Source: Minisyncoccia bacterium (GTDB taxonomy: Bacteria > Patescibacteriota > Minisyncoccia > Phycocordibacterales > Phycocordibacteraceae). Taken from it: 46,495 nt of DNA. Positions 4,201 to 22,102 of this stretch are shown piece by piece (positions within the stretch are counted from its first letter, which is position 1; each line of letters starts with the position of its first letter). Both the position numbers and the translations under genes were made by a program. Under the pieces are notes generated by a model. That model saw only the letters and a list, made by a program, of their open reading frames with translations. It made no database searches and was not told the DNA's origin. Location: contig JBAQWN010000002.1 in assembly GCA_049298935.1 (NCBI GenBank), positions 1 through 46,495 on the forward strand. The letters are read 5' to 3'.

Positions 4201-6638
4201 AGACTTTCATCTATCAGGAAAAGGTCGGTGCGCTCACTGCTACTGGTCCTCAATCTACCCTCGGTCAATTTACCGTTAGTTCGACGACGATTACCGGTAT
4301 CAACAGCGGCTCAGTCTCCTTCCAGCGCTCCGACGGTAAGTTCGTCGTCATCACTGGTGCGGCCACCACCACCACTGGCACCGTGGTCCAGGTCTATGAC
4401 GCCGGTTGGGTACAGAGTGGTTCCTATAAGTCAGAACAATTTGACCTCTCCCCGGTAGGGACGAAGCTCGATGCCAACTCGACCCTTATATGGAAAGGGA
4501 ACATGTTCTCGACTGCTCTTGGTAGTATCTCAGCAGAAGTGAAGACCGCACCGACACAAGCTGCGCTCGCGACTACCTCTACTCGAACCATTCAGCTGTC
4601 AGGCTCGCTCATTAATCCCGCCGCCACCGATGCCTGGCTTCAGGTTGCATTCAACTTCCGCAGAGCATTCCCTTCATACGACGGTATCTATACCGATGTT
4701 TGGAATTCTGGTAGCGCGATGAGATTCGCGCAACGGCCAGTGTTGACACCAACTCTGTACGAATACAAGGTGACCAAGGATAAAGACCTCCTCGACCTCC
4801 AGTCGGATGGACTCTCAATACTGCGTGTTAGCACTTCAGGCGATGTCTTCACACAGGTGGGCGGGACGATTAACACAAGTGGTGCCGACTTGGCAGAGCG
4901 CTATACCTCTCAGGTCGAGTTGCAGAAGGGCTCGGTGGTCGCTATCGACCCACAGAACAATCACGGAGTGATGCCGTCGAAATACCAATACCAGTCAGAC
5001 ATTCTTGGTGTTGTTTCGACTGATCCAGGATTCGTCGCTGGTGCGTATACCGAAAACTCGTACCCAATCGCTCTCATCGGACGCGTGCCGGTGAACGTCT
5101 CGACTGAAAACGGTATGATCCGCACGGGCGACTACCTCACTGCCGCGAGTGTCCCAGGATATGCGATGAAGGCTGTGCTTTCTGGAAGGGTGATAGGTAA
5201 GGCACTTGAGTCGCTCGACGAGAGTAAGCTTATCGACTGCCCAGCAAGCGATATCTATATGCCAAACCGGAAGTGCGGCACGGTGATGGTCTTTGTTAAC
5301 CTTATCGACTACCAAGGTCAGTCGGTCGACCTCGCGATGAGCGATTGGAACGTGAAGCGGGCAAACATCGTTGCGGCTGGTCTCGCGACAGGGCTCGATA
5401 TCGCGACGTCAACTATGCCAGCAGACGCAGCAGCACAATTTACCTTCAGAGACACTCGCTCGTCCGACATCATGAACTTCCTTGAGAGCTTGAAGGCCGA
5501 GCGCGCGGTGGGAGTAACTTCGCAGTCTGAAATATTTGCCGACAAGATAAGTGCCGTGTCGCAAGTCATCAGTCCTGAGATTGTTGCTAACATTGTAAAT
5601 GCTAAAGAAGGACGTTTCGGTGCTGTTGATGGGCTAGCAATCTCTGCGGGGACGATAACGGCTGATAAGATCATCACTTCGTCGATAAGCTCTTCTGTAG
5701 GCGGATTCACGATGGATCTCTTGCCTGACGGTCGGCTCGTGATGCGCAGAGTCGCCACTGTTTCGATGGCTTCGACATCCTCGACAAGCTCGGAGCAGGC
5801 AAGCTCACCACAAGCAATCACGACAGATATCGCGACCTCGTCACTTCTCGCTTCGGTAGATAGTGCTTTCGCCACTTTGGCATCCTCGACAAGCTTGGAG
5901 CAGGCAACCACTACAGACATAGTGATCAGTTTCGACGCTACCGGCAACGCCTTCTTCGCGGGTGAAGTTGTCGCTCAGAAAGTCTCGACCGGCGCCCTCG
6001 ACGTCTCTGGTCTCGCGAAGTTTGCGGGTGGGCTCGAAGTCGCTTCGCTCGGTATCGCGAGCTCGACGATGGCAATCCTCAGCGACACTTCCTTCATCGG
6101 TCGGCCATATTTCACCTCTGACACAGGTGGCACTGCGACGATTAAAAAAGGTGCACGCTTGGTCGACGTTACATTTGCTAGAGAATATATAGAGACACCA
6201 ATCCTCACAGCATCAATGGTCTTCACTGCCTCGACGACCGATGAAAATATCGATCAGATCTTCTCAGATGATGTGCGCTATGTGGTGACCAAGAGAACAG
6301 CGACAGGATTCACCATATTCTTGAATAAGAAAGCGACGATTGACACGACCTTTAACTGGCTCGCCCTCGCGGTGAAAGATTCGAAGGAGTTTACCTCGCG
6401 CACTGTGCAAGCAGAGCCTGTTGCGCCTCCAGTGCCATTGTCTGACGTTGTTACAGTCTCGACGACAACTCCCATGACAGCATCAACGACTTTGGAAGTC
6501 CCGCTGTTGGATACTTCGACTACGACGCCAGAAGCGGCGACGACTACTCCTGTAACAATAATCTCACTGCCCGACACATCTCTTACGTCAGACGTGCTTC
6601 CTGTGGTTGACCAACTCACTCCACTTCCGCAGGTGTAA
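3..6638 (+). CDS. Giant surface/secreted protein, 5' end outside the window (>=2,211 aa visible). It has tail-fibre-like N-terminal repeats, two beta-propeller plus beta-sandwich modules, a Peptidase_G2-like autoprocessing motif and a Ser/Thr/Pro-rich tail.
   Basis: Frame 3 is open from nt 3, with no stop before the ORF-track ATG at 231. Nt 3-143 encode IPTALATSTLYG..GGYVLGWNNATNGIGWIATSS, the same motif seen at nt ~931-1056 and ~1104-1232, so 231 is an internal Met and the protein continues upstream. Stop TAA at 6636-6638. No TM segment in the visible part. Confidence 0.85.
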   Translation, partial: SSVATIPTALATSTLYGTAPAGGYVLGWNNATNGIGWIATSSTAGGGITTLGDFYHTGLTGIAQTLSTSTADTNLGMTIVSSGTDHLFTPYWIGQLSIARGGTGLSSVSGNQLLYSNSNGTAFAQVSTSTLSIGGNAATVTTNANLSGVITSSGNTTSYAATAGANTILANATGGPAAPTFVSTSTLNIGGTASNITGIVALLNGGTGLSSITGNRLLYTNSAGTAFAQAATSTLYGTGTGGQILAWNNTNAAPTWTATTTIPVGGGVSGTLSNITVVTNANLSGVVTSSGNTTSFGTLAQGILGNPALTATIPTALATSTLYGLSTGGMVLGWNNVTGGLGFVATSSSSGLSAIGANMVLANNTSASAIPTGVSTSTMFGLSTGGKVLGWDNTTGGIGWVATSSAAGGGYTTITDDTNGSLTQVSTLAFLGTGINCINGTGQTECTVNAGAATAAGATGNIQFNTGNSLDAVTNFTWDKTNSRLGVGSSSPMATLTASSTSALIAAAIIDQRGTGALLSLQQGGLDKFTVANGGGLTISAVTSDTVKSTAGTGKTTDFDYPGATLASTTATSDYVTINDGAVPANGGSIAASTSPTTNVAVGAGGQVILRSDGKYIIIHGGGSATASLWNGFAGGAMSATPTAPATGGTVGAGAIAIKRPDGRYIVFHGGGANLSTVFDPYGITATVAGPVPGGACTTGTNAFLRQNGNYIVLCGGTTGWGVYDPSRPAPGALVAGSAIGGNWGAGAHAVQRDDGTFLVYQGGGTGTFIYNPYNNTMTAGPAAPTAIAAGSFSIRRQDGIYLTLPGSANQSFLYSPVSTTTPNGTGGFSANLGVGPSSALADGAQSVWRQDGKYILITANTTVVNVIDQGAGIPGVTAGAQAPVFSNPGAPLALSAAAGAGITAFMLPNGTSAIVRGGGTGIDIVDTNFVTGTNGANTQDAYYESECIDNTNLSPDSTMNWVSNSEGKISVQVRTVTNPTACSAGTYKSIGNSGDLIGAATANNRIQFKFTFQRELPRFMDQEWGVRKTGQTRYRRVNADPTLYSVVVDNGTALHRTQFDFGNAVSSTTAFASGPVAVNLTNDTNRANALALSVGQSATINQTMTQGTGHLYNGTFNSHNVLTTGTASSTVVMKRPDGKWVVIAGNATPNAQVYDETLQTFTALGTTPTAALGTGGFAFKRPDGKYLIVLGNKTTTTNIYDPVANTFIAGPVLTAAAWIGALQIPLPMGRVLIVHGNLTNSTSIYDPIQNTMTTGPTSVTVVGPGSVVIPRPDGTFLFVPGMSAYPICSAVVTTTQFFNPYTMLFTAAGPTNTGGTGPGAFAFQRQDGQWIIVRGGATASTCASVKGTGVYNPFDNQITTTGPTMATAPGLGAQVLPRPDGTWLMIIGGSGGPGVAQTQTFIYQEKVGALTATGPQSTLGQFTVSSTTITGINSGSVSFQRSDGKFVVITGAATTTTGTVVQVYDAGWVQSGSYKSEQFDLSPVGTKLDANSTLIWKGNMFSTALGSISAEVKTAPTQAALATTSTRTIQLSGSLINPAATDAWLQVAFNFRRAFPSYDGIYTDVWNSGSAMRFAQRPVLTPTLYEYKVTKDKDLLDLQSDGLSILRVSTSGDVFTQVGGTINTSGADLAERYTSQVELQKGSVVAIDPQNNHGVMPSKYQYQSDILGVVSTDPGFVAGAYTENSYPIALIGRVPVNVSTENGMIRTGDYLTAASVPGYAMKAVLSGRVIGKALESLDESKLIDCPASDIYMPNRKCGTVMVFVNLIDYQGQSVDLAMSDWNVKRANIVAAGLATGLDIATSTMPADAAAQFTFRDTRSSDIMNFLESLKAERAVGVTSQSEIFADKISAVSQVISPEIVANIVNAKEGRFGAVDGLAISAGTITADKIITSSISSSVGGFTMDLLPDGRLVMRRVATVSMASTSSTSSEQASSPQAITTDIATSSLLASVDSAFATLASSTSLEQATTTDIVISFDATGNAFFAGEVVAQKVSTGALDVSGLAKFAGGLEVASLGIASSTMAILSDTSFIGRPYFTSDTGGTATIKKGARLVDVTFAREYIETPILTASMVFTASTTDENIDQIFSDDVRYVVTKRTATGFTIFLNKKATIDTTFNWLALAVKDSKEFTSRTVQAEPVAPPVPLSDVVTVSTTTPMTASTTLEVPLLDTSTTTPEAATTTPVTIISLPDTSLTSDVLPVVDQLTPLPQV
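1802..3360 (+). repeat. Supermodule 1: ~7 Kelch-like beta-propeller blades followed by a ~180-aa beta-sandwich-like domain
   Basis: Seven ~45-50-aa units each contain [KR]-[RQ]-x-[DN]G-x-[YFW]-[ILV]3-x-GG (RSDGKYIIIHGGG, KRPDGRYIVFHGGG, RQNGNYIVLCGG, QRDDGTFLVYQGGG, RRQDGIYLTLPG, WRQDGKYILITAN, LPNGTSAIVRGGG). They are followed by SECIDNTNLSPDSTMNWVS..NRIQFKFTFQRELP..PTLYSVVVD. Confidence 0.65.
3361..4790 (+). repeat. Supermodule 2: a second 7-blade propeller plus beta-sandwich-like domain, paralogous to supermodule 1
   Basis: Blades are KRPDGKWVVIAGN, KRPDGKYLIVLGN, PLPMGRVLIVHGN, PRPDGTFLFVPG, QRQDGQWIIVRGG, PRPDGTWLMIIGG and QRSDGKFVVITGA. They are followed by SEQFDLSPVGTKLDANSTLIWKG..AWLQVAFNFRRAFP..PTLYEYKVT, which parallels the end of supermodule 1. 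Confidence 0.65.
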
Positions 6639-11343: not shown

Positions 11344-11891
11344 AACGCATCCTTATCGTTTTAAGTATCGTCATCGTCGTCCTCGGTGCGATATTCTCTT
11401 TCCTGTATTTCGGCGGATCATCACTGGTGCTGAGTGTGGTGGGGCAGGGGGACAGTGCACTCGTGCCGGGCGCCGGGCTCATAGGGAAGCGTCTGCCACA
11501 ATTCAATTTGTCGAATCTTGCGGGTAAACAGGTGCGTAGTGCCGACCTTGTCGGCACACCACTCGTTATTATGTTTTGGTCGACGTGGAATACGCAATCG
11601 GCTGATGAGATTCATATTCTTGACCAATATTTATCTAGCCAGAAATCTCTCGTAAGGGTTGTTGCTATTAATAGCCAAGAAGACTCCAGTGTCGTGTCGA
11701 CATTTATGCATCGTGGCGGATATCGGGTAGAGACTCTGCTTGATACTCGCGGTCTCGCGAGCGAGAATTATGCTATTAAAGGTATGCCTGCTTTTTATTT
11801 TATTGATCGCACGGGTGTGATCCGAGAAGTGCACTCGGGAGTACTTAGTCAGGACGCACTTATGAACATGATAGAAAAAATCCTGCCCTAA
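11340..11891 (+). CDS. Membrane-anchored TlpA/ResA-like thioredoxin-fold protein lacking the CxxC active site
   Basis: ATG 11340 overlaps the upstream TGA (ATGA). N-terminal TM. It aligns by eye with TlpA-like redoxins (LPQFNLSNLAGKQV.., PLVIMFWSTW.., YAIKGMPAFYFIDRTGVI), but WCxxC is replaced by W-N-T-Q-S (nt 11589-11600). Confidence 0.7.
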   Translation: MKRILIVLSIVIVVLGAIFSFLYFGGSSLVLSVVGQGDSALVPGAGLIGKRLPQFNLSNLAGKQVRSADLVGTPLVIMFWSTWNTQSADEIHILDQYLSSQKSLVRVVAINSQEDSSVVSTFMHRGGYRVETLLDTRGLASENYAIKGMPAFYFIDRTGVIREVHSGVLSQDALMNMIEKILP

Positions 11892-11909
11892 ACCCTAGTC
11901 ACTTTGTGG

Positions 11910-11942
11910 ATGTCACTTGGCGGTGAAACCGCCAAGTGACAT
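11910..11942 (+). repeat. Palindromic element copy 1 (upstream flank)
   Basis: ATGTCACTTGGCGG-TGAAA-CCGCCAAGTGACAT: perfect 14-bp stem with a 5-nt loop. Core CTTGGCGGTGAAACCGCCAAG at 11916-11936. Confidence 0.95.
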
Positions 11943-11944
11943 TG

Positions 11945-11953
11945 TGATAGGAT
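11945..11953 (+). promoter_or_regulatory. Extended -10-like box TGATAGGAT, 7 nt upstream of ATG 11961
   Basis: It lies 2 nt after hairpin copy 1, so the hairpin covers the -35 region. No SD is present. Confidence 0.4.
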
Positions 11954-11960
11954 AGTAATA

Positions 11961-12623
11961 ATGAGTACGAGGAAAACGGTTTTTGCGAATGGAGAATTTT
12001 ATCACGTGTACAATCGTGGGGTTGATAAGAGAATTATTTTTTCCGACAATTACGACGCGCAAAGGTTCTTCAAGAGTATGGTTGAATTCAACACGGCCAA
12101 TCCGATCGGGAGCCTGTACGAGAATTCATTTCATCAATTTGGCGGTGAAACCGCCAAGTCAGAAAAGAGGTTAGTTAATATCATTGCGTACTGTCTTAAC
12201 GTAAATCATTTTCACATCATCTTGGAGCAATTGATTGATGGCGGTATTAGTGAGTTTATGAAAAGAATCGGAGGGTACACATGGTACTTCAATAATAAAT
12301 ATAAAAGGAGCGGGTCTTTGTTTCAGGGGGCATTTAGAGATGTTCATATTGATTCGAACGAGTATCTTCTTCATGTAAGTGCATATGTAAATTTAAATGA
12401 CCGTGTTCATCAACTTGGCGGTGAAACCGCCAAGTTGATCGCGAATATGTCGAGCTGGGAAGAGTATACGGACAATGGGCTTAAGGGAATTTGCAAAAAG
12501 GAAATTATTTTAGGACAATTTAAAAATATTGATGAGTACAAAGAGTATGCACTCTCGTCGCTGGAATCAATTATAAAAAGAAAAGAAGATTTGAAAGATC
12601 TCGATAAGTTTCTACTCGAGTAG
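11961..12623 (+). CDS. HUH-Y1 transposase-like protein (IS200/IS605 TnpA / REP-associated tyrosine transposase family)
   Basis: N-terminal FYHVYNRG. HUH motif NHFHIIL (H83, H85). KRSGSLFQGAFR block. Tyr region SAYVNLN (Y142), corresponding to the YIHLNP of COG1943-type proteins. Confidence 0.75.
   Translation: MSTRKTVFANGEFYHVYNRGVDKRIIFSDNYDAQRFFKSMVEFNTANPIGSLYENSFHQFGGETAKSEKRLVNIIAYCLNVNHFHIILEQLIDGGISEFMKRIGGYTWYFNNKYKRSGSLFQGAFRDVHIDSNEYLLHVSAYVNLNDRVHQLGGETAKLIANMSSWEEYTDNGLKGICKKEIILGQFKNIDEYKEYALSSLESIIKRKEDLKDLDKFLLE
12137..12159 (+). repeat. Palindromic element copy 2 (inside the transposase CDS, in frame)
   Basis: TTTGGCGGTGAAACCGCCAAG at 12138-12158. Perfect 7-bp stem, plus one G-U wobble and one A-T pair, with loop TGAAA. 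Translated as F-GGETAK-S (aa 60-67). Confidence 0.95.
12409..12439 (+). repeat. Palindromic element copy 3 (inside the transposase CDS, in frame)
   Basis: ATCAACTTGGCGG-TGAAA-CCGCCAAGTTGAT: perfect 13-bp stem. Core at 12414-12434. Translated as L-GGETAK-L (aa 152-159). Confidence 0.95.
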
Positions 12624-12651
12624 TCACTTGGCGGTGAAACCGCCAAGTGAT
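12623..12651 (+). repeat. Palindromic element copy 4 (downstream flank, starts in the stop codon)
   Basis: TCACTTGGCGG-TGAAA-CCGCCAAGTGA: perfect 11-bp stem (12624-12650) plus a G-T wobble. Core at 12627-12647. The TAG stop is at 12621-12623. Confidence 0.95.
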
Positions 12652-12701
12652 GAGGGTGGACGTGCTGTGCATAATGTCACTAACATAGCGTGGTGAGGGG
12701 C

Positions 12702-12707
12702 TATAAT
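12702..12707 (+). promoter_or_regulatory. -10-like TATAAT, 11 nt upstream of ATG 12719
   Basis: Consensus hexamer in the 95-nt intergenic region. No SD between it and the ATG. Confidence 0.4.
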
Positions 12708-12718
12708 GAACGAACAGC

Positions 12719-14212
12719 ATGTCACTCTATTTCTTTGCAAATAATATCCACTTCGCGCTCGCACTTCTTGGTGCTGTTGTGATGTTTATGGCGGCATGGC
12801 TCACCTTCGACACCTACTCAGTGAGCAAGGAGACGAGAATACTCTTCCGAACGCTTGGCTTTGCGCTCTTCGCTTTGTGGCAGATTATCATAGCGGTCGC
12901 TAGCGGGAACGACGTGCTGTCATTTGTCGGATTCTCCATTCTTATCATCGGGCTCTTGTGCCTGCTTGGGAGTTTCTTTGGTGGCGAACAGCTTGCGATG
13001 CCCGCAGTTCTTATTATTCCGTCATTCGCGACCTTCGCTCCCGCGCTCTCTGCGGTCGAGGCATTTCTCCTTATCGCCATTGCTCTTGTTGCGTATCGAC
13101 TCTCAAAAAGGGAGTTCAATAAGACGTGGAAGTCGTTCTATGTCGCCTTCGCTCTCCTCGGCATAAGCCAAATCTTTTTAATAGGCGCGCACGGAGATAG
13201 TGCAAGTCTCTTCGCTCTCGCGAGCGAGGCGCTCTCGCTCGCGGGATTCCTCTACCTCTTTGCCTGGGTGTGGCAGTTTCTTGCACTACGCATCCGTGAA
13301 AGCTTGGTAATTATTTTTATCTCGGCGGCAATCTTCCTTTCGACGGTTGTGACGCTCGCGTTTTCAACTATTCTTATCGCGCAGATAACGAGTCAGACAC
13401 AGACAAGTCTCCTGACCGACGCGCGCGTGCTTGATCTCGATATTCAGGCATTGAAGCAAGCATCACTTGTTGAAGCAACTCTCCTTGCGATGGATCCACA
13501 GCTCATGAGTGCTCTCGCCACAAATGATTTCAAAACACTCCAAGCAAAAACAGAAAGTTTTATGGAGAAATATAATCTCGGCTTCGTTACCGTTACCGAT
13601 GCGCAAGGCACCGTGCTTATCCGCGCGCATGCACTCTCACAGCGCGGCGACTCTCTTGTGGGAGAGCGAGCCTTTGAAGAGGCTCGGGCGGGTGTGGCCT
13701 TTGTCACGATAGAGGAGAGTCCGGTAGAGAAACTCTCTATCCGCGCCGGTGCGCCGGTAGAGCAGAAAGGGAAGGTTATAGGCACAGTCGTCGCTGGCTA
13801 CCCGCTCGACAACGCTCTTGTTGACGGCATCAAGCGCGTGACGGGTCTCGATATGTTTATCTACCAAGGTGCAGTGTCGGTCGCCGCAACAGCCTTTGCG
13901 CGCGACGGGAGCACTCGACTTACCGGCTTGCCACTTCAGGACTCTGCAACCGAGCAGTCGGTGTTGGTTGGTGGAGAGAGCGTTACGACTCACGTGAGCA
14001 TCAGAGAACAATCGTTCCTCTCGAGCTATCTGCCGCTCACAAATGGCGACGGTAAGATTGTCGGTATGCTGTCGGCGGCGAAGCCCGAGCAGGATATTCT
14101 CGATCTCGTAAATGCTACCAACCAGCTCACGCTCATAACGATTATTATCGTTATGCTCGTGTTGACCTTCCCGATCTATATCTTCGCGAAGCGACTGACC
14201 GATGAGGCATAA
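12719..14212 (+). CDS. Multi-TM membrane protein with an extracytoplasmic Cache/PDC-like sensor region and no output domain
   Basis: About 7 hydrophobic helices in aa 1-225. Then a ~235-aa soluble alpha/beta region, one terminal TM (LTLITIIIVMLVLTFPIYIF) and a stop 9 aa later. The Cache assignment is by architecture only. Confidence 0.55.
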   Translation: MSLYFFANNIHFALALLGAVVMFMAAWLTFDTYSVSKETRILFRTLGFALFALWQIIIAVASGNDVLSFVGFSILIIGLLCLLGSFFGGEQLAMPAVLIIPSFATFAPALSAVEAFLLIAIALVAYRLSKREFNKTWKSFYVAFALLGISQIFLIGAHGDSASLFALASEALSLAGFLYLFAWVWQFLALRIRESLVIIFISAAIFLSTVVTLAFSTILIAQITSQTQTSLLTDARVLDLDIQALKQASLVEATLLAMDPQLMSALATNDFKTLQAKTESFMEKYNLGFVTVTDAQGTVLIRAHALSQRGDSLVGERAFEEARAGVAFVTIEESPVEKLSIRAGAPVEQKGKVIGTVVAGYPLDNALVDGIKRVTGLDMFIYQGAVSVAATAFARDGSTRLTGLPLQDSATEQSVLVGGESVTTHVSIREQSFLSSYLPLTNGDGKIVGMLSAAKPEQDILDLVNATNQLTLITIIIVMLVLTFPIYIFAKRLTDEA

Positions 14213-14218
14213 AAATAT

Positions 14219-15658
14219 ATGAACATACGCACAAAACTCGCTCTCACCTTCTCCTTCGTCACCATCCTGATAGGGTCGGGAGTATTTCTATATCTCGATT
14301 CATATTTCACCACAGGACTGATCAGTAAAGTAGAAAACACTTTGCGTGTCGCGGCTGAAGGGAGCGAGGGCCTCTATTTCGGTTTTATAGAAAGTGTAAA
14401 CACGAGAACTGTTGATTGGGGCTCAGATGGTCATATTAGAAACACTACTCAAAAATTGGTTAGCCAGAAGACCTCTGCAAAAGAAAAGAGCGCTATCGCC
14501 ACTGAGCTCGGTGTGTATTTCAAAGAAAATAAAATGTTATATGATCCGACCGTTATCATAATGGACGTCTTGGATAGCAGGGGTATTGTTATCGCTTCGT
14601 CGCAAGAAAATAGAATTGGTCTCAATGATGGTGAAGAAGAAAAGGATCTCAAGATTAGATTTAGCGAGGCGATAAAGGCTTCTCTCGGTGAGTCTTTTGC
14701 TATTGACGCGAATAATGAGGGGTATGACGGTACCAATCGAACTACAAATGCTACAACACGAATTTTTTCTACTGACACTGGTGTTGACGGGGTTGTTCTA
14801 CCCCTGAATGCTGTCTTGCTACTACATTTCTCGAGGAACAATCAGATATCAGACATACTCACGGGCGCCTTTCAGATTAGTCTGGGAGCGCTCACGGGCA
14901 ATGCTCTTGCGCAGACGTATAGGAGTGAAGAGATATATTTGGTAGATAAAGAAGGCTCAATTATCACTAATCCTTCTAATACAAGAAGTGATCATCCTTC
15001 TCTTAATAAGAAAGTGAGCAAGTATTTGGTTGAGACGTGCTTTAAAGAAAACAGAGAAATAGCTGAAGAATATACAAATTATGATGGTGCTAAGGTCTTT
15101 GGCGCGACTATGTGCATCAAGAGGCATGGCGTTATGCTCGTTGCAGAAGTGCTGTCGAGCGAAGCTCTCGCCACACTTACTCAGACGAGGCGAACGATTA
15201 TTCTCGGCATCTTACTCACGGTCATGGCAACTATTGTGTGTAGCATACTATTTAGCAGTATCATTCTTAAACCCCTTGATACTATGGTGCTCGTCGCCAA
15301 AAATATTTCTCATGGGAAGTTCGACATGCGCGCACAGGTTAAGTCTAAAGATGAGTTCGGGTACCTCGCGACCGTGTTTAATGAGATGCTTGACGCTATT
15401 GAAAAATCGCGGCAGGGATTAAAAGAGGCTGAGGCACAGTTGAAGGACACTAATATTGCCCTTGAACAGCGAGTGAAAGAGCGCACGGCGGAACTAGATG
15501 AGCTGAAGTCTGGGCTAGAAGAAGAAGTTAATAAAAAGACAGGTCAATTGCAACAGAAACTGGCAGAATTGGAAAAATTCAAACAACTCACGGTCGGTCG
15601 AGAGCTGATGATGGTCGAATTAAAAAAAGAAATTTTAAAGTTAAAAGATAAATCTTAA
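14219..15658 (+). CDS. TM-sensor-TM-HAMP-coiled-coil protein without kinase/MCP/GGDEF output
   Basis: TM1 LALTFSFVTILIGSGVFLYL, then a ~290-aa extracytoplasmic region, then TM2 IILGILLTVMATIVCSILFSSIIL. HAMP-like segment KPLDTMVLVAKNISHGKFDMRAQVKSKDEFGYLATVFNEMLDAI. Signalling-helix-like coil (LEQRVKERTAELDEL...) to the C-terminus. Confidence 0.7.
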   Translation: MNIRTKLALTFSFVTILIGSGVFLYLDSYFTTGLISKVENTLRVAAEGSEGLYFGFIESVNTRTVDWGSDGHIRNTTQKLVSQKTSAKEKSAIATELGVYFKENKMLYDPTVIIMDVLDSRGIVIASSQENRIGLNDGEEEKDLKIRFSEAIKASLGESFAIDANNEGYDGTNRTTNATTRIFSTDTGVDGVVLPLNAVLLLHFSRNNQISDILTGAFQISLGALTGNALAQTYRSEEIYLVDKEGSIITNPSNTRSDHPSLNKKVSKYLVETCFKENREIAEEYTNYDGAKVFGATMCIKRHGVMLVAEVLSSEALATLTQTRRTIILGILLTVMATIVCSILFSSIILKPLDTMVLVAKNISHGKFDMRAQVKSKDEFGYLATVFNEMLDAIEKSRQGLKEAEAQLKDTNIALEQRVKERTAELDELKSGLEEEVNKKTGQLQQKLAELEKFKQLTVGRELMMVELKKEILKLKDKS

Positions 15659-15663
15659 GATCT

Positions 15664-16404
15664 ATGAATACATCTGCAAACAATTATGATGAGGCTGTTG
15701 AAATAGCTCCGGGAATTTATTGGGTTGGGTTTTATGATAAGGATGCGATTTTTTCTTGCAATCCGTATCTCATTGTCGACGGCGACGAGGCTATCTTGAT
15801 AGATGGTGGATCGCTCGGGCATTTCCCCTTTGTGGCGAGAAAAGTTTTTAGCATCATTGAGCCGTCAAAAATAAAAAATCTCATATTGCACCATATGGAC
15901 CCAGACCTCTGCGCGTCCATGCCTCTTTTCCAAAATATTATCGATAACAAAGATCTTCAGGTCATTTCTCACTATCGCGCGTCGCTCCTGATAGCGTATT
16001 ACTCTCAAGAGAAAATGAATTTCTATTATCCAGAAAAAAACGATAATATATTCAGATTTTCGTCAGGGAGAACATTACGATTTATTCCTGCTCACTATCT
16101 TCACACGCCGGGCACTATTAACACGTATGATGAGAAGACGAAGATCTTATTCTCCTCAGACATTTTTGGTGCGTTTACGCCGAAATGGGAGCTATACGCT
16201 GATAAAGAGTATCCAGAGAAGATGAGAACATTCCATGAAAATTACATGCCATCCAACAGAATCATGGAACAATATCTGGACCGAATAAAAAAGTTAGATA
16301 TCGAGATGATTTGTTCACAGCACGGATCGATTATTAAGAAGGATCTTGTTGATCAATCAATACGGGCATTGGGAAATTTTGAATATGGAAAGTATATGGA
16401 GTAA
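15664..16404 (+). CDS. Stand-alone FprA-type metallo-beta-lactamase-fold (di-iron) domain protein, ODP-like
   Basis: It aligns by eye along its whole length with the N-terminal domain of flavodiiron proteins: IAPGIYWVG, NPYLIVDGDEAILIDG, LHHMDPDL (vs NH-x-E-x-DH), LHTPG (vs LHWPD), FSSDIFG (vs NDAFG), SQHGSII (vs PSHGII). There is no flavodoxin domain. Confidence 0.75.
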   Translation: MNTSANNYDEAVEIAPGIYWVGFYDKDAIFSCNPYLIVDGDEAILIDGGSLGHFPFVARKVFSIIEPSKIKNLILHHMDPDLCASMPLFQNIIDNKDLQVISHYRASLLIAYYSQEKMNFYYPEKNDNIFRFSSGRTLRFIPAHYLHTPGTINTYDEKTKILFSSDIFGAFTPKWELYADKEYPEKMRTFHENYMPSNRIMEQYLDRIKKLDIEMICSQHGSIIKKDLVDQSIRALGNFEYGKYME

Positions 16405-16408
16405 GCGT

Positions 16409-17779
16409 ATGTTTTTTAAACATGAAAAAGATCATCAAATAAAATCTCTCACGAAAGAGCTGTCAATGGAGCGCCTCAGTGCTTTTGCTGATTCGTTCTT
16501 AAGAAAGCAAGAGCGCAGATTATTATTTGAAGTAATGAAAAATGCATCTGATTTGCGCAGATTGAAGAAATTAACCGATGGGTTTGCCACACAGAACGAG
16601 CTGTTGAACCAGACAGAGCTCGCGATGCTTAATTTGCTCGATGACGCCAAACTTCTAGAAGGGAAGCTTGAGATGGAAAAAGAAAGTGTTGAGCGCAAGG
16701 TCGTCTTGCGTACGCAAGAGCTCGAGGTCGAGCGGTCCCGTCTCTTTGCTTCTATCAACAGTCTCTCGTTTGGCTTTATCATCGTTGATATGAATCATCG
16801 CGTCCTTCTTGAGAATAATGCGATGATGCAACTCTTTGGTTTTTCTGATAAAGATGAAGTCACTATTGAAAATATTTCAAACCTCCTAGGTGAACACTTC
16901 GATGTCAAAATGGAGGCAGAGCGATGCGTGAAGGGTAAGGCGGTGTGTGAAATAAAAGAGATTATTTTTGGTACAAAATTTCTTCGCGGTATTATTGCTC
17001 CCGTTCTCTCGGGCACCGCTGATGAGAAGGTCGGTTACGTCTTCCTGCTTGAAGACATTACGGAGGCTAAGGTGATGGAGAGGAGTCGTGAAGAATTTTT
17101 TGCGGTCGCCAGTCACGAGCTCCGTACGCCACTCACGGCTATTCGTGGCAACGCGGATATGATTTTGAGCATGTTTGCAGACAAAATAGTCGATAAGGAT
17201 ATGAAAGAGATGCTTGAAGATATTGACACGTCGAGCGTGCGCCTGATTTCAATCGTGAACGACTTCTTAGAGGTGTCGCGCCTCGAACAGGGGAGGGTTG
17301 AGATCAAGAAAGAAGATTTCGATATATCGCTCATGGTGGAGAGAGTTGTGCGCGACCTAAAGACTATGGTCGAGCAAAAAGGCTTGTCTATTGTCTATAC
17401 CGCACCTACCTCTCCTATGCCAATGGTGCGTGCCGATAAAAATAAAACAGAACAGATTCTTCTGAACCTTGTTGGGAATGCGGTGAAATTTACCAAAGAG
17501 GGCGGTATTACGGTTACTACGACGGTGGCAGACGGTTTTGTTACTACCCAGATTATTGATACTGGCACAGGCATTTCAGAGCATAATCAGTCGCTTCTCT
17601 TTAGAAAGTTTCAGCAGGCAGGAGAGCAGATGCTTGCGCGGGACGTGACCCAGAGCACTGGTCTCGGTCTGTACATTTCTAAGCTCATTATCACGAACAT
17701 GGGCGGTACCATAGGGCTTTCGAAAAGCGAGTTTGGCAAAGGGAGCACGTTCTTCTTTACCTTACCAATAGTGGTATAG
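16409..17779 (+). CDS. Soluble sensor histidine kinase (coiled coil - PAS - HisKA - HATPase_c)
   Basis: Start chosen at ATG 16409 because GGAG (16398-16401) lies 7 nt upstream. H-box FFAVASHELRTPLTAIRG, N-box LLNLVGNAVKFT, G1 DTGTGI, G2 GLGLYIS. No TM segment. Confidence 0.85.
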   Translation: MFFKHEKDHQIKSLTKELSMERLSAFADSFLRKQERRLLFEVMKNASDLRRLKKLTDGFATQNELLNQTELAMLNLLDDAKLLEGKLEMEKESVERKVVLRTQELEVERSRLFASINSLSFGFIIVDMNHRVLLENNAMMQLFGFSDKDEVTIENISNLLGEHFDVKMEAERCVKGKAVCEIKEIIFGTKFLRGIIAPVLSGTADEKVGYVFLLEDITEAKVMERSREEFFAVASHELRTPLTAIRGNADMILSMFADKIVDKDMKEMLEDIDTSSVRLISIVNDFLEVSRLEQGRVEIKKEDFDISLMVERVVRDLKTMVEQKGLSIVYTAPTSPMPMVRADKNKTEQILLNLVGNAVKFTKEGGITVTTTVADGFVTTQIIDTGTGISEHNQSLLFRKFQQAGEQMLARDVTQSTGLGLYISKLIITNMGGTIGLSKSEFGKGSTFFFTLPIVV

Positions 17780-17785
17780 TATACT
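17772..17785 (+). promoter_or_regulatory. Overlapping -10-like boxes TGGTATAGT / TATACT upstream of ATG 17792
   Basis: TGGTATAGTATACT. TATACT (17780-17785) is 6 nt from the ATG. The box overlaps the kinase stop codon, so this may be an internal promoter or a coincidence. Confidence 0.3.
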
Positions 17786-17791
17786 CAATCT

Positions 17792-18217
17792 ATGGCTAAA
17801 CTATTTATGGCAGAAGACGATCCGCTCATGAGCCGTATGTATGAGCGGGCATTTCGCCTTGGGGGGCACGAGCTCACGATGGCGCACGACGGTGAAGAAG
17901 CCGTCACACTTTTGCTGAAGGCAGATCCAAAGCCGGAGGTCATTATGCTCGATATCATGATGCCGAAGCTAAATGGCTTTGACGTTTTGCGCAAGGTCAA
18001 AGAAGACGAGAAGCTTAAACGCGTTCCTGTCATCATGCTCACCAACCTTGCGGGTGAAGCGGATGCTGAAAAGGCTCTCGGTCTCGGCGCCGTGCTCTAT
18101 CTCGTGAAGAGTCAGTATGATCCGAAAGAGATCGTCAGTAAAGTGCAGGAGATCATTGCGGCTTCGTCGCGCGGAGACAATGTGCCCGCAGTCACCGTCG
18201 AGGTGAAGAAGAGTTAA
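17792..18217 (+). CDS. Single-domain response regulator (REC only, CheY-like)
   Basis: Acidic pocket EDD (aa 8-10), phospho-acceptor D in VIMLDIMMP, T in IMLTN, K in YLVKS. At 141 aa there is no output domain. Confidence 0.85.
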   Translation: MAKLFMAEDDPLMSRMYERAFRLGGHELTMAHDGEEAVTLLLKADPKPEVIMLDIMMPKLNGFDVLRKVKEDEKLKRVPVIMLTNLAGEADAEKALGLGAVLYLVKSQYDPKEIVSKVQEIIAASSRGDNVPAVTVEVKKS

Positions 18218-18221
18218 TCCA

Positions 18222-19904
18222 ATGGTTCGACAGCTTCTCGAGCGTATCGCGGCACCCGTACGCGGCCTGCATCAGGCCGCGTACTTACTCGCGGGCCTCA
18301 CACTCGCGTCGCAGGCGCTCGCTCTCTTGCGGGACCGTACCTTCGCTCACACCTTTGGTGCTGGGCAGACGCTTGATATTTATTATGCTGCGTTTCGCGT
18401 GCCTGATCTCGTTTTCGCTCTCGTCTCATCACTCGTGAGTGCCTATGTTATTATCCCGCGCATTGCCGGGATGAGCAGAGAAGAGACCCAGAGACTGCTT
18501 TCTGAGTCAGCGACATTCCTCTTCGGTGTTGGCGGGTTTATTTGCATTATTCTCGGCATTTTCATGCCGCAGTTCTTGACGTTTTTGTATCCGAGCCTCA
18601 TGGCGTCGTCGCAACAGTCTGCCTTTGTTTTTCTTGCGCGCATCTTGCTTGTCCAACCAATCTTGCTCGGACTCTCGGGTGTTATCGGGAGTGTTGCACA
18701 GGTGCATCGGCGATTTACCCTCTTCGCGCTCTCTCCGGTGCTCTACAATCTCGGTATCATTATTGGTGCCATCGTTCTCTATCCTCTTTGGGGTTTGCCG
18801 GGAATCGGTGTCGGCGTTGTTATCGGTGCCGTCGCCTACCTCTCAGTGCATATTCCCGTCGTGATGCAGGCGGGAGTTATGCCACACGTGCGCTTCCCGA
18901 CATTTTCGCTCATGTACTCGGTCATGCGTGATTCAGTGCCACGCTCGCTTGCGCTCAGTGTCAATTCGATCATGTTGCTTGTCTTGACTGCGATGGCGGC
19001 GCGCATAGGTACCGGAGGCGTTTCTGTTTTTAGTTTTGCGAGTAATCTCGAGGCAGTGCCACTCGCTCTTATTGGCTCGTCCTATGCTATTGCGGCATTC
19101 CCCGCACTTTCTGAAGCGTTTGCGAAAAAAGATAAAGAAGAATTCATGAAGATTCTTTCAGCAAGCGCGCGACATATTATCCTTTGGTCGATCGTTGCTT
19201 TCGGTCTTATTGTGGTCTTGCGTGCACATATTGTGCGCGTCATCCTCGGGTCCGGCGCTTTTGATTGGAATGCGACGCGCCTTACGGCGGCCCTTCTTGC
19301 CGTCCTTGCGCTCGGTCTTGTTGTCGATTCTCTCAAACTACTCTTCTCACGAGCGCTCTATGCCGCACAACAATCGTGGCGACCGCTTTTATATCAATTG
19401 GCTGGGGCTGCTCTTACGATTGCTCTCGCGCTCGCTTTCCTCGCTTTGCCAGGTGCGGGTATTCCCTCGTCGCTCGCTTCTCTTTTAAGAGTCACCGATG
19501 TTGTGGGGGCAGACGTACTTCTTCTCGCGCTTGCGTATGTCATAGGTCAATTTTTTCTCGTCTTCCTTTCTCTAATCGCACTTCGCACTATTGTACCTGG
19601 GCTCAGTCGCACGCTCGTGCGACCAGTCTTCGATGGTGGTTTTGCCGCGTTCGCTGGTGGTGTGGCGGCGTACGGTATTCTCGTTATTGCGGGTGGCATC
19701 GCTTCTCTCACGACGCTCGCCGCCGTCTTCACGCAAGGGTTCGTCGCTGGCGTGGTAGGTCTTGCTGTTTCGGGTCTGGTACTTTTCTTTGTTGAAAATG
19801 AAGAGTTCCTTATTGTCGCACAAGCACTTTCGAGATTGATGCATCTCCCGATGCATCGAGCATCGGAACTCGTCTCGCCGATAGAAGACCCAACACGCTC
19901 ATGA
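18222..19904 (+). CDS. murJ: Lipid II flippase MurJ (MviN family)
   Basis: 560 aa, polytopic throughout. N-terminal LALLRDRTFAHTFGAGQTLDIYYAAFRVPD matches the MurJ signature region. Confidence 0.8.
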   Translation: MVRQLLERIAAPVRGLHQAAYLLAGLTLASQALALLRDRTFAHTFGAGQTLDIYYAAFRVPDLVFALVSSLVSAYVIIPRIAGMSREETQRLLSESATFLFGVGGFICIILGIFMPQFLTFLYPSLMASSQQSAFVFLARILLVQPILLGLSGVIGSVAQVHRRFTLFALSPVLYNLGIIIGAIVLYPLWGLPGIGVGVVIGAVAYLSVHIPVVMQAGVMPHVRFPTFSLMYSVMRDSVPRSLALSVNSIMLLVLTAMAARIGTGGVSVFSFASNLEAVPLALIGSSYAIAAFPALSEAFAKKDKEEFMKILSASARHIILWSIVAFGLIVVLRAHIVRVILGSGAFDWNATRLTAALLAVLALGLVVDSLKLLFSRALYAAQQSWRPLLYQLAGAALTIALALAFLALPGAGIPSSLASLLRVTDVVGADVLLLALAYVIGQFFLVFLSLIALRTIVPGLSRTLVRPVFDGGFAAFAGGVAAYGILVIAGGIASLTTLAAVFTQGFVAGVVGLAVSGLVLFFVENEEFLIVAQALSRLMHLPMHRASELVSPIEDPTRS

Positions 19905-21697
19905 ACCAAAAACTTATTCGTAATTTTTCGATTATTGCCCATGTCGACCACGGCAAGTCGACCTTGGCCGACCGCTTGCTCGAGCGCACGGGGGCTATCC
20001 CTGAGCGCAAGATGCGCGACCAGGTGCTTGATCGTATGGACCTTGAGCGCGAACGGGGCATCACGATAAAGATGCAGCCGGTCAGGATGCAGTACGGCGA
20101 GTATGTATTTAATTTGATCGATACTCCCGGGCATATCGATTTCTCTTACGAAGTATCACGGGCGCTCAAGGCAGTCGAGGGAGTGCTTCTCTTGGTTGAC
20201 TCGACGCAGGGCATACAGGCGCAGACTCTGACGACACTTGCGATGGCTCAGGCACAAGGGTGTGTGATTATCCCGGTCGTGTCAAAAATCGATGCTCCTG
20301 CCGCTCGTGTTGACGAGGTCGCTAGTGAGCTCGCGCGACTTATCAATGTTGATCGTTCTGAGGTTATTGCCGTGTCTGGGAAAACGGGTGCGGGTGTCGA
20401 AGAATTGCTGGAGGCTATTGCTGAGCGTATTCCACCGCCGCATGCTACGGACATTTCTCAGGGGAGTGAACCGCGCGGTCTTATTTTTGACTTTTCGTTT
20501 TCAAAGCATCGCGGGGTTGCGGTGTATGTGCGTGTCTTCGATGGCGTTTTTGCCAAAGGACAGTCGCTTACTTTTGCCGCCGCAGAAAAAGAGTTTGTGG
20601 CGCTTGAGACGGGTATTTTTACTCCAGAAGAAACTCCTGCAGACTTGCTTGGTGCTGGCGAGATTGGCTATATCGTGACGGGTATCAAGGAGCCGGGTGT
20701 CGTTGCGGTGGGCGACACTATCGGTCTGGTAAAGGGATCTTTGGCGGCACTTCCCGGATATGGTAAACCACGACCCGTTGTCTGGGCGTCTTTGTATCCA
20801 GAAAATCATGATGACCTCCCGCTCTTGCGGCAGTCACTTGGGCGTTTGCGACTTTCAGATTCGTCACTTTCATTTGAAGAAGAATCCTCTGGTGTGCTCG
20901 GGAGGGGGTTCCGTTGTGGATTTCTCGGACTTTTACATCTTGAGATTATTACCGAGCGTTTGCGAAGAGAGTTTGGTCTCAGACTCATCGTGACTATCCC
21001 GACGATCTCTTATGTGGTCACTCGTACAAACGGTTCTCGTGAGACGATCTATACACCAGCGAAGTTCCCTGAACACGGCGATATTGAGCGTATTGAAGAG
21101 CCGTGGGCGAAGGTTATTATCATCACGCCACCCGACACGCTCTCGGCACTTGTTCAGCTACTCTATGAGCATGAAGCGTTGACGCTTGGTACAGAGACAT
21201 ATCAAGATTTGCGGGTAGAAATGACTGTCGAGATGCCACTTCGTGAACTTATGCGTGGCTTCTTCGATGCTCTCAAAAATATTTCTTCGGGATACGCCTC
21301 GCTTTCCTATGAGATCCTGCCTGAGCGGCCTGCAGACGTTGTGCGACTCGATATTCTCGTCGCTGAAGAACCGGTGCCGGCTTTTGCGCGTGTTATTGCC
21401 TCGAGGCGTGTTCAAGAAGAGGCAGAAAAGATGGTGGAGAAATTGCACGAAGCTCTCCCGAAACAGCTCTTTAATACAAAAATTCAGGCACGCGTTGGTG
21501 GGCGCATTATCGCTTCTCGAACGCTCTCGGCAATGCGTAAGGACGTCACGGGGTATCTCTATGGTGGCGACGTATCGCGCAAGAATAAGCTTCTCGACAA
21601 GCAGAAGAAAGGTAAGAAGAAAATGCTTGAGCGTGGCACGGGCAAAGTGAATATCCCTGAAGAGGTCTTTATGAAAATGGTACAGTCTGATTCTTAA
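19901..21697 (+). CDS. lepA: Translation elongation factor 4 (LepA)
   Basis: IRNFSIIAHVDHGKSTLADRLLE, DTPGHIDF, and a LepA-specific C-terminal region ending in a basic tail (KQKKGKKKM). ATGA overlap with murJ. Confidence 0.95.
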   Translation: MNQKLIRNFSIIAHVDHGKSTLADRLLERTGAIPERKMRDQVLDRMDLERERGITIKMQPVRMQYGEYVFNLIDTPGHIDFSYEVSRALKAVEGVLLLVDSTQGIQAQTLTTLAMAQAQGCVIIPVVSKIDAPAARVDEVASELARLINVDRSEVIAVSGKTGAGVEELLEAIAERIPPPHATDISQGSEPRGLIFDFSFSKHRGVAVYVRVFDGVFAKGQSLTFAAAEKEFVALETGIFTPEETPADLLGAGEIGYIVTGIKEPGVVAVGDTIGLVKGSLAALPGYGKPRPVVWASLYPENHDDLPLLRQSLGRLRLSDSSLSFEEESSGVLGRGFRCGFLGLLHLEIITERLRREFGLRLIVTIPTISYVVTRTNGSRETIYTPAKFPEHGDIERIEEPWAKVIIITPPDTLSALVQLLYEHEALTLGTETYQDLRVEMTVEMPLRELMRGFFDALKNISSGYASLSYEILPERPADVVRLDILVAEEPVPAFARVIASRRVQEEAEKMVEKLHEALPKQLFNTKIQARVGGRIIASRTLSAMRKDVTGYLYGGDVSRKNKLLDKQKKGKKKMLERGTGKVNIPEEVFMKMVQSDS

Positions 21698-21756
21698 CGC
21701 AAAACAAGGTTCGACCTTAGATCCGAATCCTCAAGGTCGAACCTTGTTTTGCGTTA
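21695..21756 (+). other. Perfect 24-bp inverted repeat (stem-loop) between lepA and the ftsB-like gene
   Basis: TAACGCAAAACAAGGTTCGACCTT (21695-21718), 14-nt loop AGATCCGAATCCTC, then AAGGTCGAACCTTGTTTTGCGTTA (21733-21756). The 5' arm starts at the lepA stop codon. No T-run follows. Confidence 0.9.
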
Positions 21757-21766
21757 TACTGACATC

Positions 21767-22102
21767 ATGCGCACGCATCAGTGGAAACGGGGAATTCTTA
21801 TCGGTGTTCTTTTGCTCGTGATATTCTGGCTTATGTCGCTTATCTGGGGTCTTTCGGGAAAGGCTCAGATAGCGGTGTCTCAAGCAAACGAGGCCGAGCG
21901 GCAATATCAATCGCTTGAAGGCCGAAGGGAGTCGCTTGCGGCGAGTCTTGCCGCTCTTGCTACCGAGCGTGGGCGCGACGCGGCCATACGAACGGCCTTT
22001 GGGGTTGCGCGACCAGGAGAAGAAGTCATCGTGGTGGTGCCACCCGCTACGACGACTGAGGTCGCACCGTCGTGGTGGCAGAAGATATTAAATTGGTTCT
22101 AA
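21767..22102 (+). CDS. Septum formation initiator-like protein (FtsB/DivIC family), bitopic
   Basis: ATG 21767 is preferred over the TTG at 21749, which lies inside the hairpin. N-terminal TM (GILIGVLLLVIFWLMSLIW), then a coiled coil, then ..AIRTAFGVARPGEEVIVV, resembling the FtsB/DivIC C-terminal motif. Confidence 0.55.
   Translation: MRTHQWKRGILIGVLLLVIFWLMSLIWGLSGKAQIAVSQANEAERQYQSLEGRRESLAASLAALATERGRDAAIRTAFGVARPGEEVIVVVPPATTTEVAPSWWQKILNWF

Follow-up and report, generated by a model that had tools for sequence, protein, structure and literature searches.

Conserved helices that appear to join separate sensor and kinase proteins in uncultured bacteria and archaea

Introduction

How can a membrane sensor act on a histidine kinase when the two are made as separate proteins? 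The signals of sensor kinases are thought to run along one continuous coiled coil, and the question is raised by a five-gene signaling cluster (positions 12719-18217, + strand; genes numbered g1 to g5) in a 46,495-nucleotide (nt) stretch of DNA from a Minisyncoccia bacterium (GenBank assembly GCA_049298935.1, contig JBAQWN010000002.1), referred to at its full length as the window. In this cluster g2 encodes a membrane sensor that ends without an output domain, g4 encodes a soluble histidine kinase, and a gene for an oxygen-binding di-iron protein (ODP), g3, stands between them; g1 encodes another membrane sensor and g5 a response regulator. An initial annotation, made without database searches, had quoted a C-terminal helix of g2 and the N-terminal coil of g4 as two elements that could pair. 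Our analysis finds that both correspond to conserved motifs that co-occur and lie adjacent to each other across genomes: a tail at the end of g2, here called the ELK tail, and a segment of the g4 stalk, here called the LNILED helix. A plug helix and a socket helix of this kind appear to be common to thousands of uncultured bacteria and archaea, in which they would join separate sensor and kinase proteins.

If a short helix does allow a separate sensor to take over in this way, the system would provide a new route to the study of signal transmission in trans, with parts that can be mixed. It would also explain thousands of proteins annotated as "HAMP/PAS domain-containing proteins" that lack an output domain, show how organisms with one kinase integrate several inputs, and supply a natural connector with which synthetic biology could rewire sensors to kinases. 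The ODP, a known O2 sensor of chemotaxis, would be extended to histidine-kinase signaling, with a candidate binding segment indicated.

Results

The sensor and the kinase of the cluster are separate proteins

Domains were called with Pfam and NCBIfam, and membrane topology was taken from a hydropathy scan. The g2 product has a transmembrane (TM) segment at residues 7-25, about 300 amino acids outside the membrane, a second TM segment at residues 327-345, and a HAMP domain at residues 345-395 (E = 4.8e-10); its final 84 amino acids, after HAMP, have no domain match in Pfam or NCBIfam. Within this last part, residues ~405-440 qualify as a signaling helix (S-helix), being a coiled coil with an ERT signature (KERTAEL). 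The g4 product contains PAS, HisKA (67.6 bits, E = 1e-18), and HATPase_c (79.2 bits, E = 4e-22) domains with the H-box SHELRTPL, and has neither a TM segment nor a HAMP domain, as the membrane sensor and the transmitter reside on g2. The initial annotation had described g2 as a TM-sensor-TM-HAMP-coil protein without an output domain and g4 as a soluble coil-PAS-HisKA-HATPase kinase without TM or HAMP, and both descriptions stand.

A search for homologs of g2 returned two classes of protein. The first is HAMP-only, 454-486 amino acids long, and comes from Wolfebacteria, Azambacteria, and others; the second consists of fused HAMP-PAS-HisKA-HATPase_c proteins of 773-816 amino acids that are 46-53% identical to g2. 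Because close homologs of g2 exist as single fused sensor-kinases, the split of sensor and kinase is real, and the earlier expectation that the parts found in g2 and g4 form one polypeptide elsewhere is borne out. In the fused class, ..KKAMLNILEDARALE.. (AMLNILED) comes about 35 residues past HAMP and is followed by PAS, without an ELK tail, while in the split class HAMP is followed by the S-helix (LEQRVKERTAEL) and the protein ends with ..ELEKFKKLTVGRELKMIELKKEIE.. The split layout is retained in many lineages at 40-45% identity to g2. The gene order of the cluster was found again in dozens of unrelated contigs, contrary to the scattering of these genes among relatives that the initial annotation had named as a ground for abandoning its proposal.

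The ELK tail ends output-less sensors of many kinds

As a tag, the ELK tail is carried by sensors at their C-terminus: in the loci collected, about 100 diverse sensors that lack an output domain end in the tail seen in g2 (..LTVGRELKMIELKKEI..). When one genome per species was scanned with the g2 family, 80 loci were obtained, from the candidate phyla radiation (CPR), DPANN and other archaea, and a few other phyla, and many of these loci matched the family in the HAMP-tail part alone. When the motif [GNDSA]RE.[KR]M..LK was searched for in the open reading frames (ORFs) of 84 loci (the 80 from the scan and L001-L004), 99 occurrences were found, 97 of which lie 8-30 residues from the C-terminus. 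The domains seen in 95 carriers include HAMP (49), PAS (about 18), and dCache_1 (18), as well as HisKA_7TM, PocR, flavodoxin, NAD-binding, CHASE4, GAF, 4HB_MCP, and one REC; there is no kinase, cyclase, or methyl-accepting chemotaxis protein (MCP) output domain among the 25 commonest families of these carriers. Four residues of the tail (R461, E462, M465, and K469 in g2 numbering) are invariant across the 95 tails.

A profile of 96 tails, which the g2 tail matches at E = 3e-17, was compared with 1.84 billion cluster representatives and recovered 15,736 proteins with E ≤ 1e-3, of which 1,751 reach E ≤ 1e-10. For almost every one of the 150 best of the 15,736, the matched stretch ends close to the C-terminus. 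The tail has no match among Pfam-A or NCBIfam models or PDB chains. No description of the ELK tail or of the LNILED motif was found in the literature searched, the coverage of which is incomplete, so that an earlier description is possible.

The possibility that the tail is a copy of the kinase H-box helix (GRELKMIEL compared with SHELRTPL) was considered and rejected, as the profile-profile comparison of the tail with whole kinases gave a probability of 8.7%; the stretch aligned in this comparison is the region before LNILED and not the dimerization and histidine phosphotransfer (DHp) domain. Two departures from the usual form of the tail were also seen. At L076:6323-7174 and L079:6006-7172 the ELK motif is not terminal and the protein continues for 87-89 residues (..KTWAARFKEAINLEEDV..). 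At L032, L050, L062, and L074 (Aminicenantes, Methanophagales, Deltaproteobacteria, Methanosarcinales), all outside CPR and DPANN, the tail is longer and ends in ..ELKKEIN.LLE..GKEP.YKI.., so these tails may form a subfamily.

The LNILED helix marks the kinases that lie beside ELK genes

Kinases directly downstream of ELK-tail sensors are marked by an ..AMLNILED.. helix, in which A72, N75, and D79 (g4 numbering) are invariant in 45 kinases. A g4-like kinase lies 0-3 genes downstream on the same strand for 65 of 97 ELK-tail genes, and about 40 of 55 of these downstream kinases, judged by eye, carry ..ALMNILEDVEEAR.. in the helix that enters the last PAS domain or the DHp directly. An AlphaFold2 model of g4 built from an 18-row alignment (mean predicted local distance difference test [pLDDT] score 81.9) shows residues 4-117 as one unbroken helix, followed by the PAS, DHp, and catalytic domains; with this region modeled as a single helix, the kinase would have a long free stalk.

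To avoid ascertainment via the tail, a fixed sample of 401 Patescibacteria genomes was searched with each motif separately. The ELK tail was present in 43 genomes and LNILED in 43, with both in 39, while HisKA was present in 333. The odds ratio for co-occurrence is 863 (Fisher p = 6e-45, uncorrected for kinship); these and the following genome counts rest on samples, and relatedness inflates the statistics. Of the 47 LNILED matches in this sample, 37 have an ELK tail 49-4972 nt upstream on the same strand, and several of the exceptions are at contig ends. The archaeal phylum of locus L041 gave a similar picture in 151 genomes: each motif occurs in 11, these are the identical 11 genomes, and 10 of them carry the tail 36-2,948 nt upstream of the kinase helix, in the same orientation. 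Tails outnumber kinase helices by about 2:1 in both samples (81 to 47 in Patescibacteria and 22 to 11 in the archaea). Two of the four "tail only" genomes have an adjacent kinase with a diverged helix (IAAQNVFEDL).

Among all loci collected, a single natural fusion of the ELK-like and AMLNILED helices was found, in a 487-amino acid kinase (L115:1655-3118, - strand; G101:C1). Its order is TM, coil, LTVERELRLAELKKQIKNK, a 21-residue linker with three prolines, AMLNILEDAREIQ, PAS, and kinase. A single-sequence model of this protein has a helix at residues 2-101, no helix at 102-119, and a helix at 120-140, a helix-linker-helix pattern that is usable only in the confident N-terminal part, as the model is unreliable beyond residue 103. 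In two other loci (L001 and L141), fused kinases retain LNILED and still have ELK-tailed sensor genes upstream.

A soluble sensor gene commonly occupies the break

The product of g3 is a genuine ODP. It matches the Pfam ODP family (PF19583) over profile positions 1-194 with 210.6 bits against a cut-off of 27.2 (E = 2.5e-62), and its 246 amino acids form a single domain of the metallo-beta-lactamase fold, lacking the flavodoxin domain of flavodiiron proteins, that aligns end to end with solved ODPs of 253-255 amino acids, the full-length matches being 6qrq (6qrq/6qwo) and 6qnm (6qnm/6r9n). The g3 motif HHMDPDL corresponds to THQDPDV/SHQDPDV of the solved ODPs and AHYLHTPG to AHFLHSTG/SHFMHSPG, while FSSDIF is aligned with FSGDIG and SQHGS with PQHGA; we take the individual metal ligands within these motifs to be HxDxD, H, D, and H, a set that is normal for the family. 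The FprA/ODP-like protein that the initial annotation had placed between g2 and g4 is thus assigned to a defined family, and g3 is proposed to be a di-iron O2/Fe(II) sensor. Its identity is 85% to the ODP domain of L003, 76% to L010, and 66% to L012. ODP is rare in the phylum, with a strong full-length match in this genome only among the 401 genomes.

The occupant of the break between sensor and kinase varies among loci. A family of ~200 amino acids that is weakly V4R-like is found there in 12 cases and hemerythrin in 5, clear V4R/DUF2507 proteins in 2 cases, and ODP in the window, in L010, and, as a NIT-HAMP-ODP fusion, in L003. The placement of a sensor gene exactly at the break, to which the initial annotation had drawn attention, therefore holds for soluble sensors (ODP, hemerythrin, V4R-like) in many loci.

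In seven of eight ODP loci examined the ODP gene is directly before the kinase, and in the eighth it is before a small helical protein. A word search for relatives of the g4 N-terminus returned only g4 itself, and a metagenome scan with a three-sequence alignment of this N-terminus recovered mostly the LNILED part and no new ODP loci, so the association between ODP and the kinase N-terminal extension was examined by way of ODP homologs. In the four closest with enough context (L143-L146), ODP directly precedes a soluble PAS kinase of 452-477 amino acids and sensors (HAMP-tail, GAF-tail, hemerythrin) come before it; in three of these loci the next two genes include a REC-only gene, and a pilin-like gene then comes after it in all three. 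The ODP-linked kinases (those of the window, L003, L010, and L143-L146) share a segment ..CL..FA..FL..QER.L.. ahead of LNILED. A hidden Markov model (HMM) of this extension, made from six seed kinases and searched against the 7,108 stop-to-stop ORFs of all loci collected, matched no kinases other than the six seeds and the non-seed L144 (E = 2.9e-10), all of them directly after an ODP gene; the segment is absent by this search from kinases that lie beside V4R genes or have an empty slot.

Several of the proteins in or near the slot are unusual. The 656-amino acid NIT sensor-HAMP-ODP fusion of L003 (L003:8383-10353) stands between the tail gene and the kinase gene and has its ODP, the closest to g3 among those compared above, as the C-terminal domain of a membrane transducer. 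At L012:3995-4318 (- strand), 24 nt after an ODP gene at 4342-5094, a 108-amino acid protein consists of an extension-like segment with an ELK tail directly after it and is a possible ODP-to-kinase adaptor. The ~200-amino acid slot family ends in ..EETKC.FRGD.YHEYLI.W and is present in L024, L025, L027, L029, L056, L072, L073 (for example, L073:1087-1695), L078, L081, and L084; it could be assigned to no family, with weak V4R hits for 4 of 12 members and a profile probability of 1.5% against the clear V4R of L004. In L004 itself, a PDDEXK_3 nuclease-like gene (L004:8460-8861) lies between the tail gene and the V4R gene and has no counterpart in the otherwise matching locus L014, which suggests a mobile insertion.

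The middle of the cluster resembles a cassette

Sequence identity changes abruptly along the cluster, so that the segment 15419-16648, which holds the g2 tail, the ODP gene, and the first 80 residues of g4, behaves as a cassette; unlike its flanks, it has the L003 locus as its closest relative. Residues 1-80 of g4 are 58-59% identical to the L003 kinase and residues 81-456 are 20-31% identical to it, whereas with the fused L125 kinase the figures are 56-72% for residues 81-456 and 20% for residues 1-49. Residues 1-400 of g2 are 51-57% identical to the fused protein P0002; the tail is unrelated to P0002 and is 62% identical to the L003 tail. In a maximum-likelihood tree of the first 400 residues, g2 falls in a clade with 100/100 support whose six other members are all fused kinases, with P0002 as its sister (98/91), and the well-supported branches require at least two changes between split and fused forms. 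In this window, sensors appear to be swapped by recombination of short cassettes. The segment also includes the lowest G+C content of the cluster (0.35-0.41; L003, 0.336), which is suggestive only as a sign of transfer. As proof of transfer G+C was rejected, since the third-position G+C (GC3) of g2 and g3, at 0.44 compared with 0.59 for g1 and 0.62 for g5, is nevertheless within the spread of the window genes.

The cluster holds the only two-component kinase system of the genome

The extracytoplasmic sensor domain of g1 is a dCache_3 (Pfam, E = 5.8e-20) located between an N-terminal block of ~8 TM segments and a last TM segment at ~460-478, and the protein ends shortly past the latter, at residue 497, with no output domain and no ELK tail, in accord with the earlier description of a multi-TM protein with an extracytoplasmic sensor and a terminal TM. 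Orthologs of g1 (E down to 3e-153) are upstream of g4-type kinases in L077, L125, L141, L127, L131, L132, L135-L137, L139, L140, and L021. The joint occurrence of g1, the g4 core, and g5 in L077, L125, L141, and nine other loci makes g1 a conserved part of the cluster in this lineage.

The g5 product matches REC over residues 5-118 of its 141 amino acids (72 bits, E = 5.6e-20) and contains the motifs EDD, IMLDIMMP, MLTNL, and YLVKS, so the acidic pocket, the acceptor Asp (in IMLDIMMP), the Thr, and the Lys are intact; there is no output or DNA-binding domain, as the initial annotation had read it. Orthologs of g5 come after g4-type kinases (E to 2e-67). At least one REC-only gene follows in 44 of 55 of the kinases downstream of ELK genes, and two follow in 26 of 55, which agrees with the CheY-like output suggested earlier.

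The genome (a 634-kb assembly in 65 contigs, 97.6% complete) holds one ELK tail, one LNILED helix, one HisKA kinase (g4), and two REC domains, both in REC-only proteins, and this 97.6%-complete assembly has no MCPsignal or CheW match. The cluster g1-g5 holds the only two-component kinase system of this ultra-small bacterium. The second REC-only gene is on contig C63 (4811-5236), where it shares 4 nt with the end of pilB (3039-4814) and is followed by pilT (5240-6301). Past this gene the type IV pilus cluster of C63 comprises pilT, pilC, pilins, and a prepilin peptidase. In a subset of related loci, pilin and PilB genes are found downstream of the kinase and REC genes.

Proposed assembly and its alternatives

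We lean toward the view that g1-g5 encode one non-covalently assembled sensor-kinase complex. The g4 product would be a soluble, presumably dimeric kinase whose first 114 residues make one long helix, serving as a free signaling stalk. The g2 product would be a membrane sensor with a Cache-like outside domain, HAMP, and S-helix. Its ELK tail would pack against the LNILED segment of this stalk, and conformational change would pass between two proteins and not down one continuous coiled coil. ODP may bind the extra segment at the tip of the stalk, which is present only in ODP-linked kinases, and g1, as a second membrane sensor without a cytoplasmic part, would probably act on g2 within the membrane. 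Both docking events on the stalk, that of the g2 tail and that of ODP, are what we infer from sequence, and so are the role of g1, the targets of phosphotransfer, and the pilus output. g4 would phosphorylate g5 and, as it is the sole kinase, probably also the REC-only protein encoded between PilB and PilT; since these targets are REC-only, the output would be protein-protein control, plausibly of type IV pili. In a broader form of this proposal, the chances of which seem to us evenly balanced, the ELK tail and LNILED would be a general plug and socket with which bacteria and archaea of small genome size (CPR, DPANN, and others) couple several stand-alone, interchangeable sensors non-covalently to one kinase, soluble sensors of gas or redox state (ODP, hemerythrin, V4R-like) would dock higher on the stalk, and sensors would be swapped by cassette recombination.

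A number of observations weigh against these proposals. The kinases from which the LNILED profile was built lie beside ELK genes, so that co-occurrence may in part reflect co-inheritance of an operon family and not a constraint acting between the helices; related genomes are not independent in the co-occurrence counts, and the motifs vary too little for covariation to be tested on the pairs collected. No g4-like kinase is found within four genes of 32 of the 97 ELK genes, some of which are at contig ends and some beside other proteins. Past residue 103 the L115 model is poor (pLDDT 44.8). As to ODP, its association with the extension could be plain physical linkage in a recombining cassette, and the 108-amino acid protein of L012 matches the extension HMM weakly, at 14.8 bits. 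As to the output, the cluster is followed here by murJ and lepA and not by pilin genes, and only 7 of 55 loci have pilin-like genes after the kinase, so a general link to type IV pili was rejected and the link holds for a subset.

Some of these points would suit an operon that serves one pathway without any docking of the ELK tail on the kinase, the tail being instead a generic homodimerizing cap, or a ligand of REC proteins, the DHp bundle, or the pilus motor, so that the sensor acts indirectly or not at all. A third of the ELK genes lack a nearby g4-like kinase, co-occurrence can come from common descent of the operon, and profile comparison shows no homology of the tail to any part of the kinase. 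A plain dimerization coil, however, would not be expected to keep four invariant residues across bacteria and archaea amid changing sensor domains, nor to be limited to the extreme C-terminus of output-less sensors. LNILED is conserved among kinases with divergent cores (the identity of g4 is 29% with the P0002 kinase and 60% with that of L125), the L115 fusion sets the two helices 21 residues apart, and the fused kinases of L001 and L141 keep LNILED with ELK-tailed sensors upstream. We consider the absence of docking unlikely, though deserving of attention.

The excess of ELK sensors over kinases in both samples (81 to 47; 22 to 11) would fit competing regulators, and some ELK carriers are very small, at 108-160 amino acids, which would be consistent with ELK-tailed proteins being anti-kinases whose tail inserts into or competes with the kinase coiled coil and switches the kinase off, in the manner of small inhibitor proteins known elsewhere, with ODP acting independently. 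This is a variant of the docking model that draws on the same evidence, and the sign of the effect is not readable from sequence; most carriers, however, are full sensor-HAMP-S-helix transmitters, built for passing conformational signals rather than blocking them, and an anti-kinase role seems to us quite improbable. Still harder to credit is an accidental origin, in which insertion of the ODP gene recently broke a fused kinase and left g2 as a decaying remnant without function. The sensor part of g2 does nest among fused kinases, and the middle of the cluster looks imported, but g2 is intact and its tail is complete, with 62% identity to the L003 tail and a match to the tail profile at E = 3e-17, and the same split layout occurs in many lineages that are 40-45% identical to g2. 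A simple insertion would not provide both a conserved tail and a matching N-terminal stalk, and no relaxed selection or frameshifts in g2 were seen in close relatives, leaving this explanation next to no weight.

Comparison with known systems

Muok et al. reportedly described in 2019 an ODP of Treponema denticola together with a soluble chemoreceptor, TDE2496. This ODP and its cognate receptor, summarized in PMC7666581, resemble the present system in having a stand-alone ODP of the same fold and metal-ligand motifs that is genetically coupled to a sensor-less soluble partner consisting largely of a long helical stalk. Unlike the T. denticola receptor, the partner here is a HisKA histidine kinase and not an MCP feeding CheA, in a genome without MCP and CheW, and it is proposed to take membrane sensor input as well, via a separate tag.

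Kinases of the WalK type have the order TM, extracytoplasmic PAS/Cache, TM, HAMP, PAS, HisKA, HATPase, and are accompanied by the membrane accessory proteins YycH and YycI. Together g2 and g4 give the WalK domain order, which is exactly the architecture of their fused relatives; HK_WalK of NCBIfam is the best match for g2 and the third for g4, and an accessory membrane protein is encoded alongside (g1 here, as YycH/YycI in WalK systems). The WalK equivalog NF033092 has a cut-off of 725 bits, compared with which g2 scores 65.1 and g4 172.8. Unlike WalK, the system here is divided over two proteins whose genes are separated by a third, and its regulator g5 has no DNA-binding domain.

The S-helix is a coiled coil of ~40 residues with an ERT signature that links an upstream to a downstream domain within the same polypeptide (Anantharaman, Balaji, and Aravind 2006, PMC1592074). 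The ERT-bearing coiled coil after HAMP in g2 (KERTAEL) is such an element, and the g4 stalk is an element of the same kind before PAS. Unlike the S-helix, the helix of g2 ends a protein, being followed only by the ELK tail and the stop, and that of g4 begins one, and each adjoins a conserved motif of its own. Regulation of kinases via helical-bundle contacts with other proteins is familiar from GacS-RetS, KinA-Sda/KipI, and FixL-FixT. The system proposed here would likewise have a separate protein acting on the helical core of a kinase; in contrast to those individual cases, one short tag would do so across many sensor types, upstream of the DHp.

Layout and surroundings of the cluster

The features of the cluster are listed in Table 1. 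The five genes are co-directional, and the junction sequences give spacers of 6, 5, 4, and 12 nt, within the 4-12 nt stated in the initial annotation. A mechanical ORF list puts the start of g4 at a TTG at 16346, within g3. From the ATG at 16409 the protein begins MFFKHEKDHQIK, which matches the start of the L003 orthologue, MFFQQTKENQIK, and g4 was therefore taken as 16409-17779.

Table 1. Positions of the genes and sequence elements of the signaling cluster in the window.
Feature	Positions	Strand	Description
Sigma-70-like promoter candidate	12680..12707	+	CTAACA-16-TATAAT, ends 12 nt before the g1 ATG; consensus match
g1	12719..14212	+	497 aa; membrane sensor with ~8 N-terminal TM, extracytoplasmic dCache_3, last TM
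g2	14219..15658	+	479 aa; TM, ~300-aa extracytoplasmic sensor, TM, HAMP, S-helix, ELK tail
Cassette-like segment	15419..16648	+	g2 tail, ODP, and first 80 residues of g4; identity breakpoints
S-helix of g2	15431..15538	+	..ALEQRVKERTAELDEL..; ERT signature at residues 421-423; read from sequence
ELK tail of g2, proposed plug	15524..15655	+	..KLAELEKFKQLTVGRELMMVELKKEILKLKDKS; profile and motif searches
g3	15664..16404	+	246 aa; stand-alone ODP, oxygen-binding di-iron protein by family
g4	16409..17779	+	456 aa; soluble kinase with 114-residue N-terminal helix, PAS, DHp (SHELRTPL), catalytic domain
N-terminal extension of g4, candidate ODP-docking segment	16424..16582	+	Residues 6-58, ..LSMERLSAFADSFLRKQERRLLFEVMKNASDL..
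LNILED motif of g4, proposed socket	16622..16645	+	AMLNLLDD, residues 72-79
g5	17792..18217	+	141 aa; REC-only (CheY-like) response regulator

The candidate promoter, the best site in 11800-22000, agrees with the consensus at 10 of 12 positions and probably marks where the operon starts. The scanned region has no more terminator-like sites than shuffled sequence. Directly upstream of the promoter are a RAYT-like Y1 transposase gene (window 11961-12623) and a hairpin at 12624-12660 (ggcggtgaaaccgcc). On the other side, murJ begins 4 nt past g5 and lepA overlaps murJ by 4 nt (window 18222-21697), so that one transcript may carry the signaling genes along with genes for the cell envelope and translation. 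The place that murJ and lepA occupy here is taken by pilin genes in relatives.

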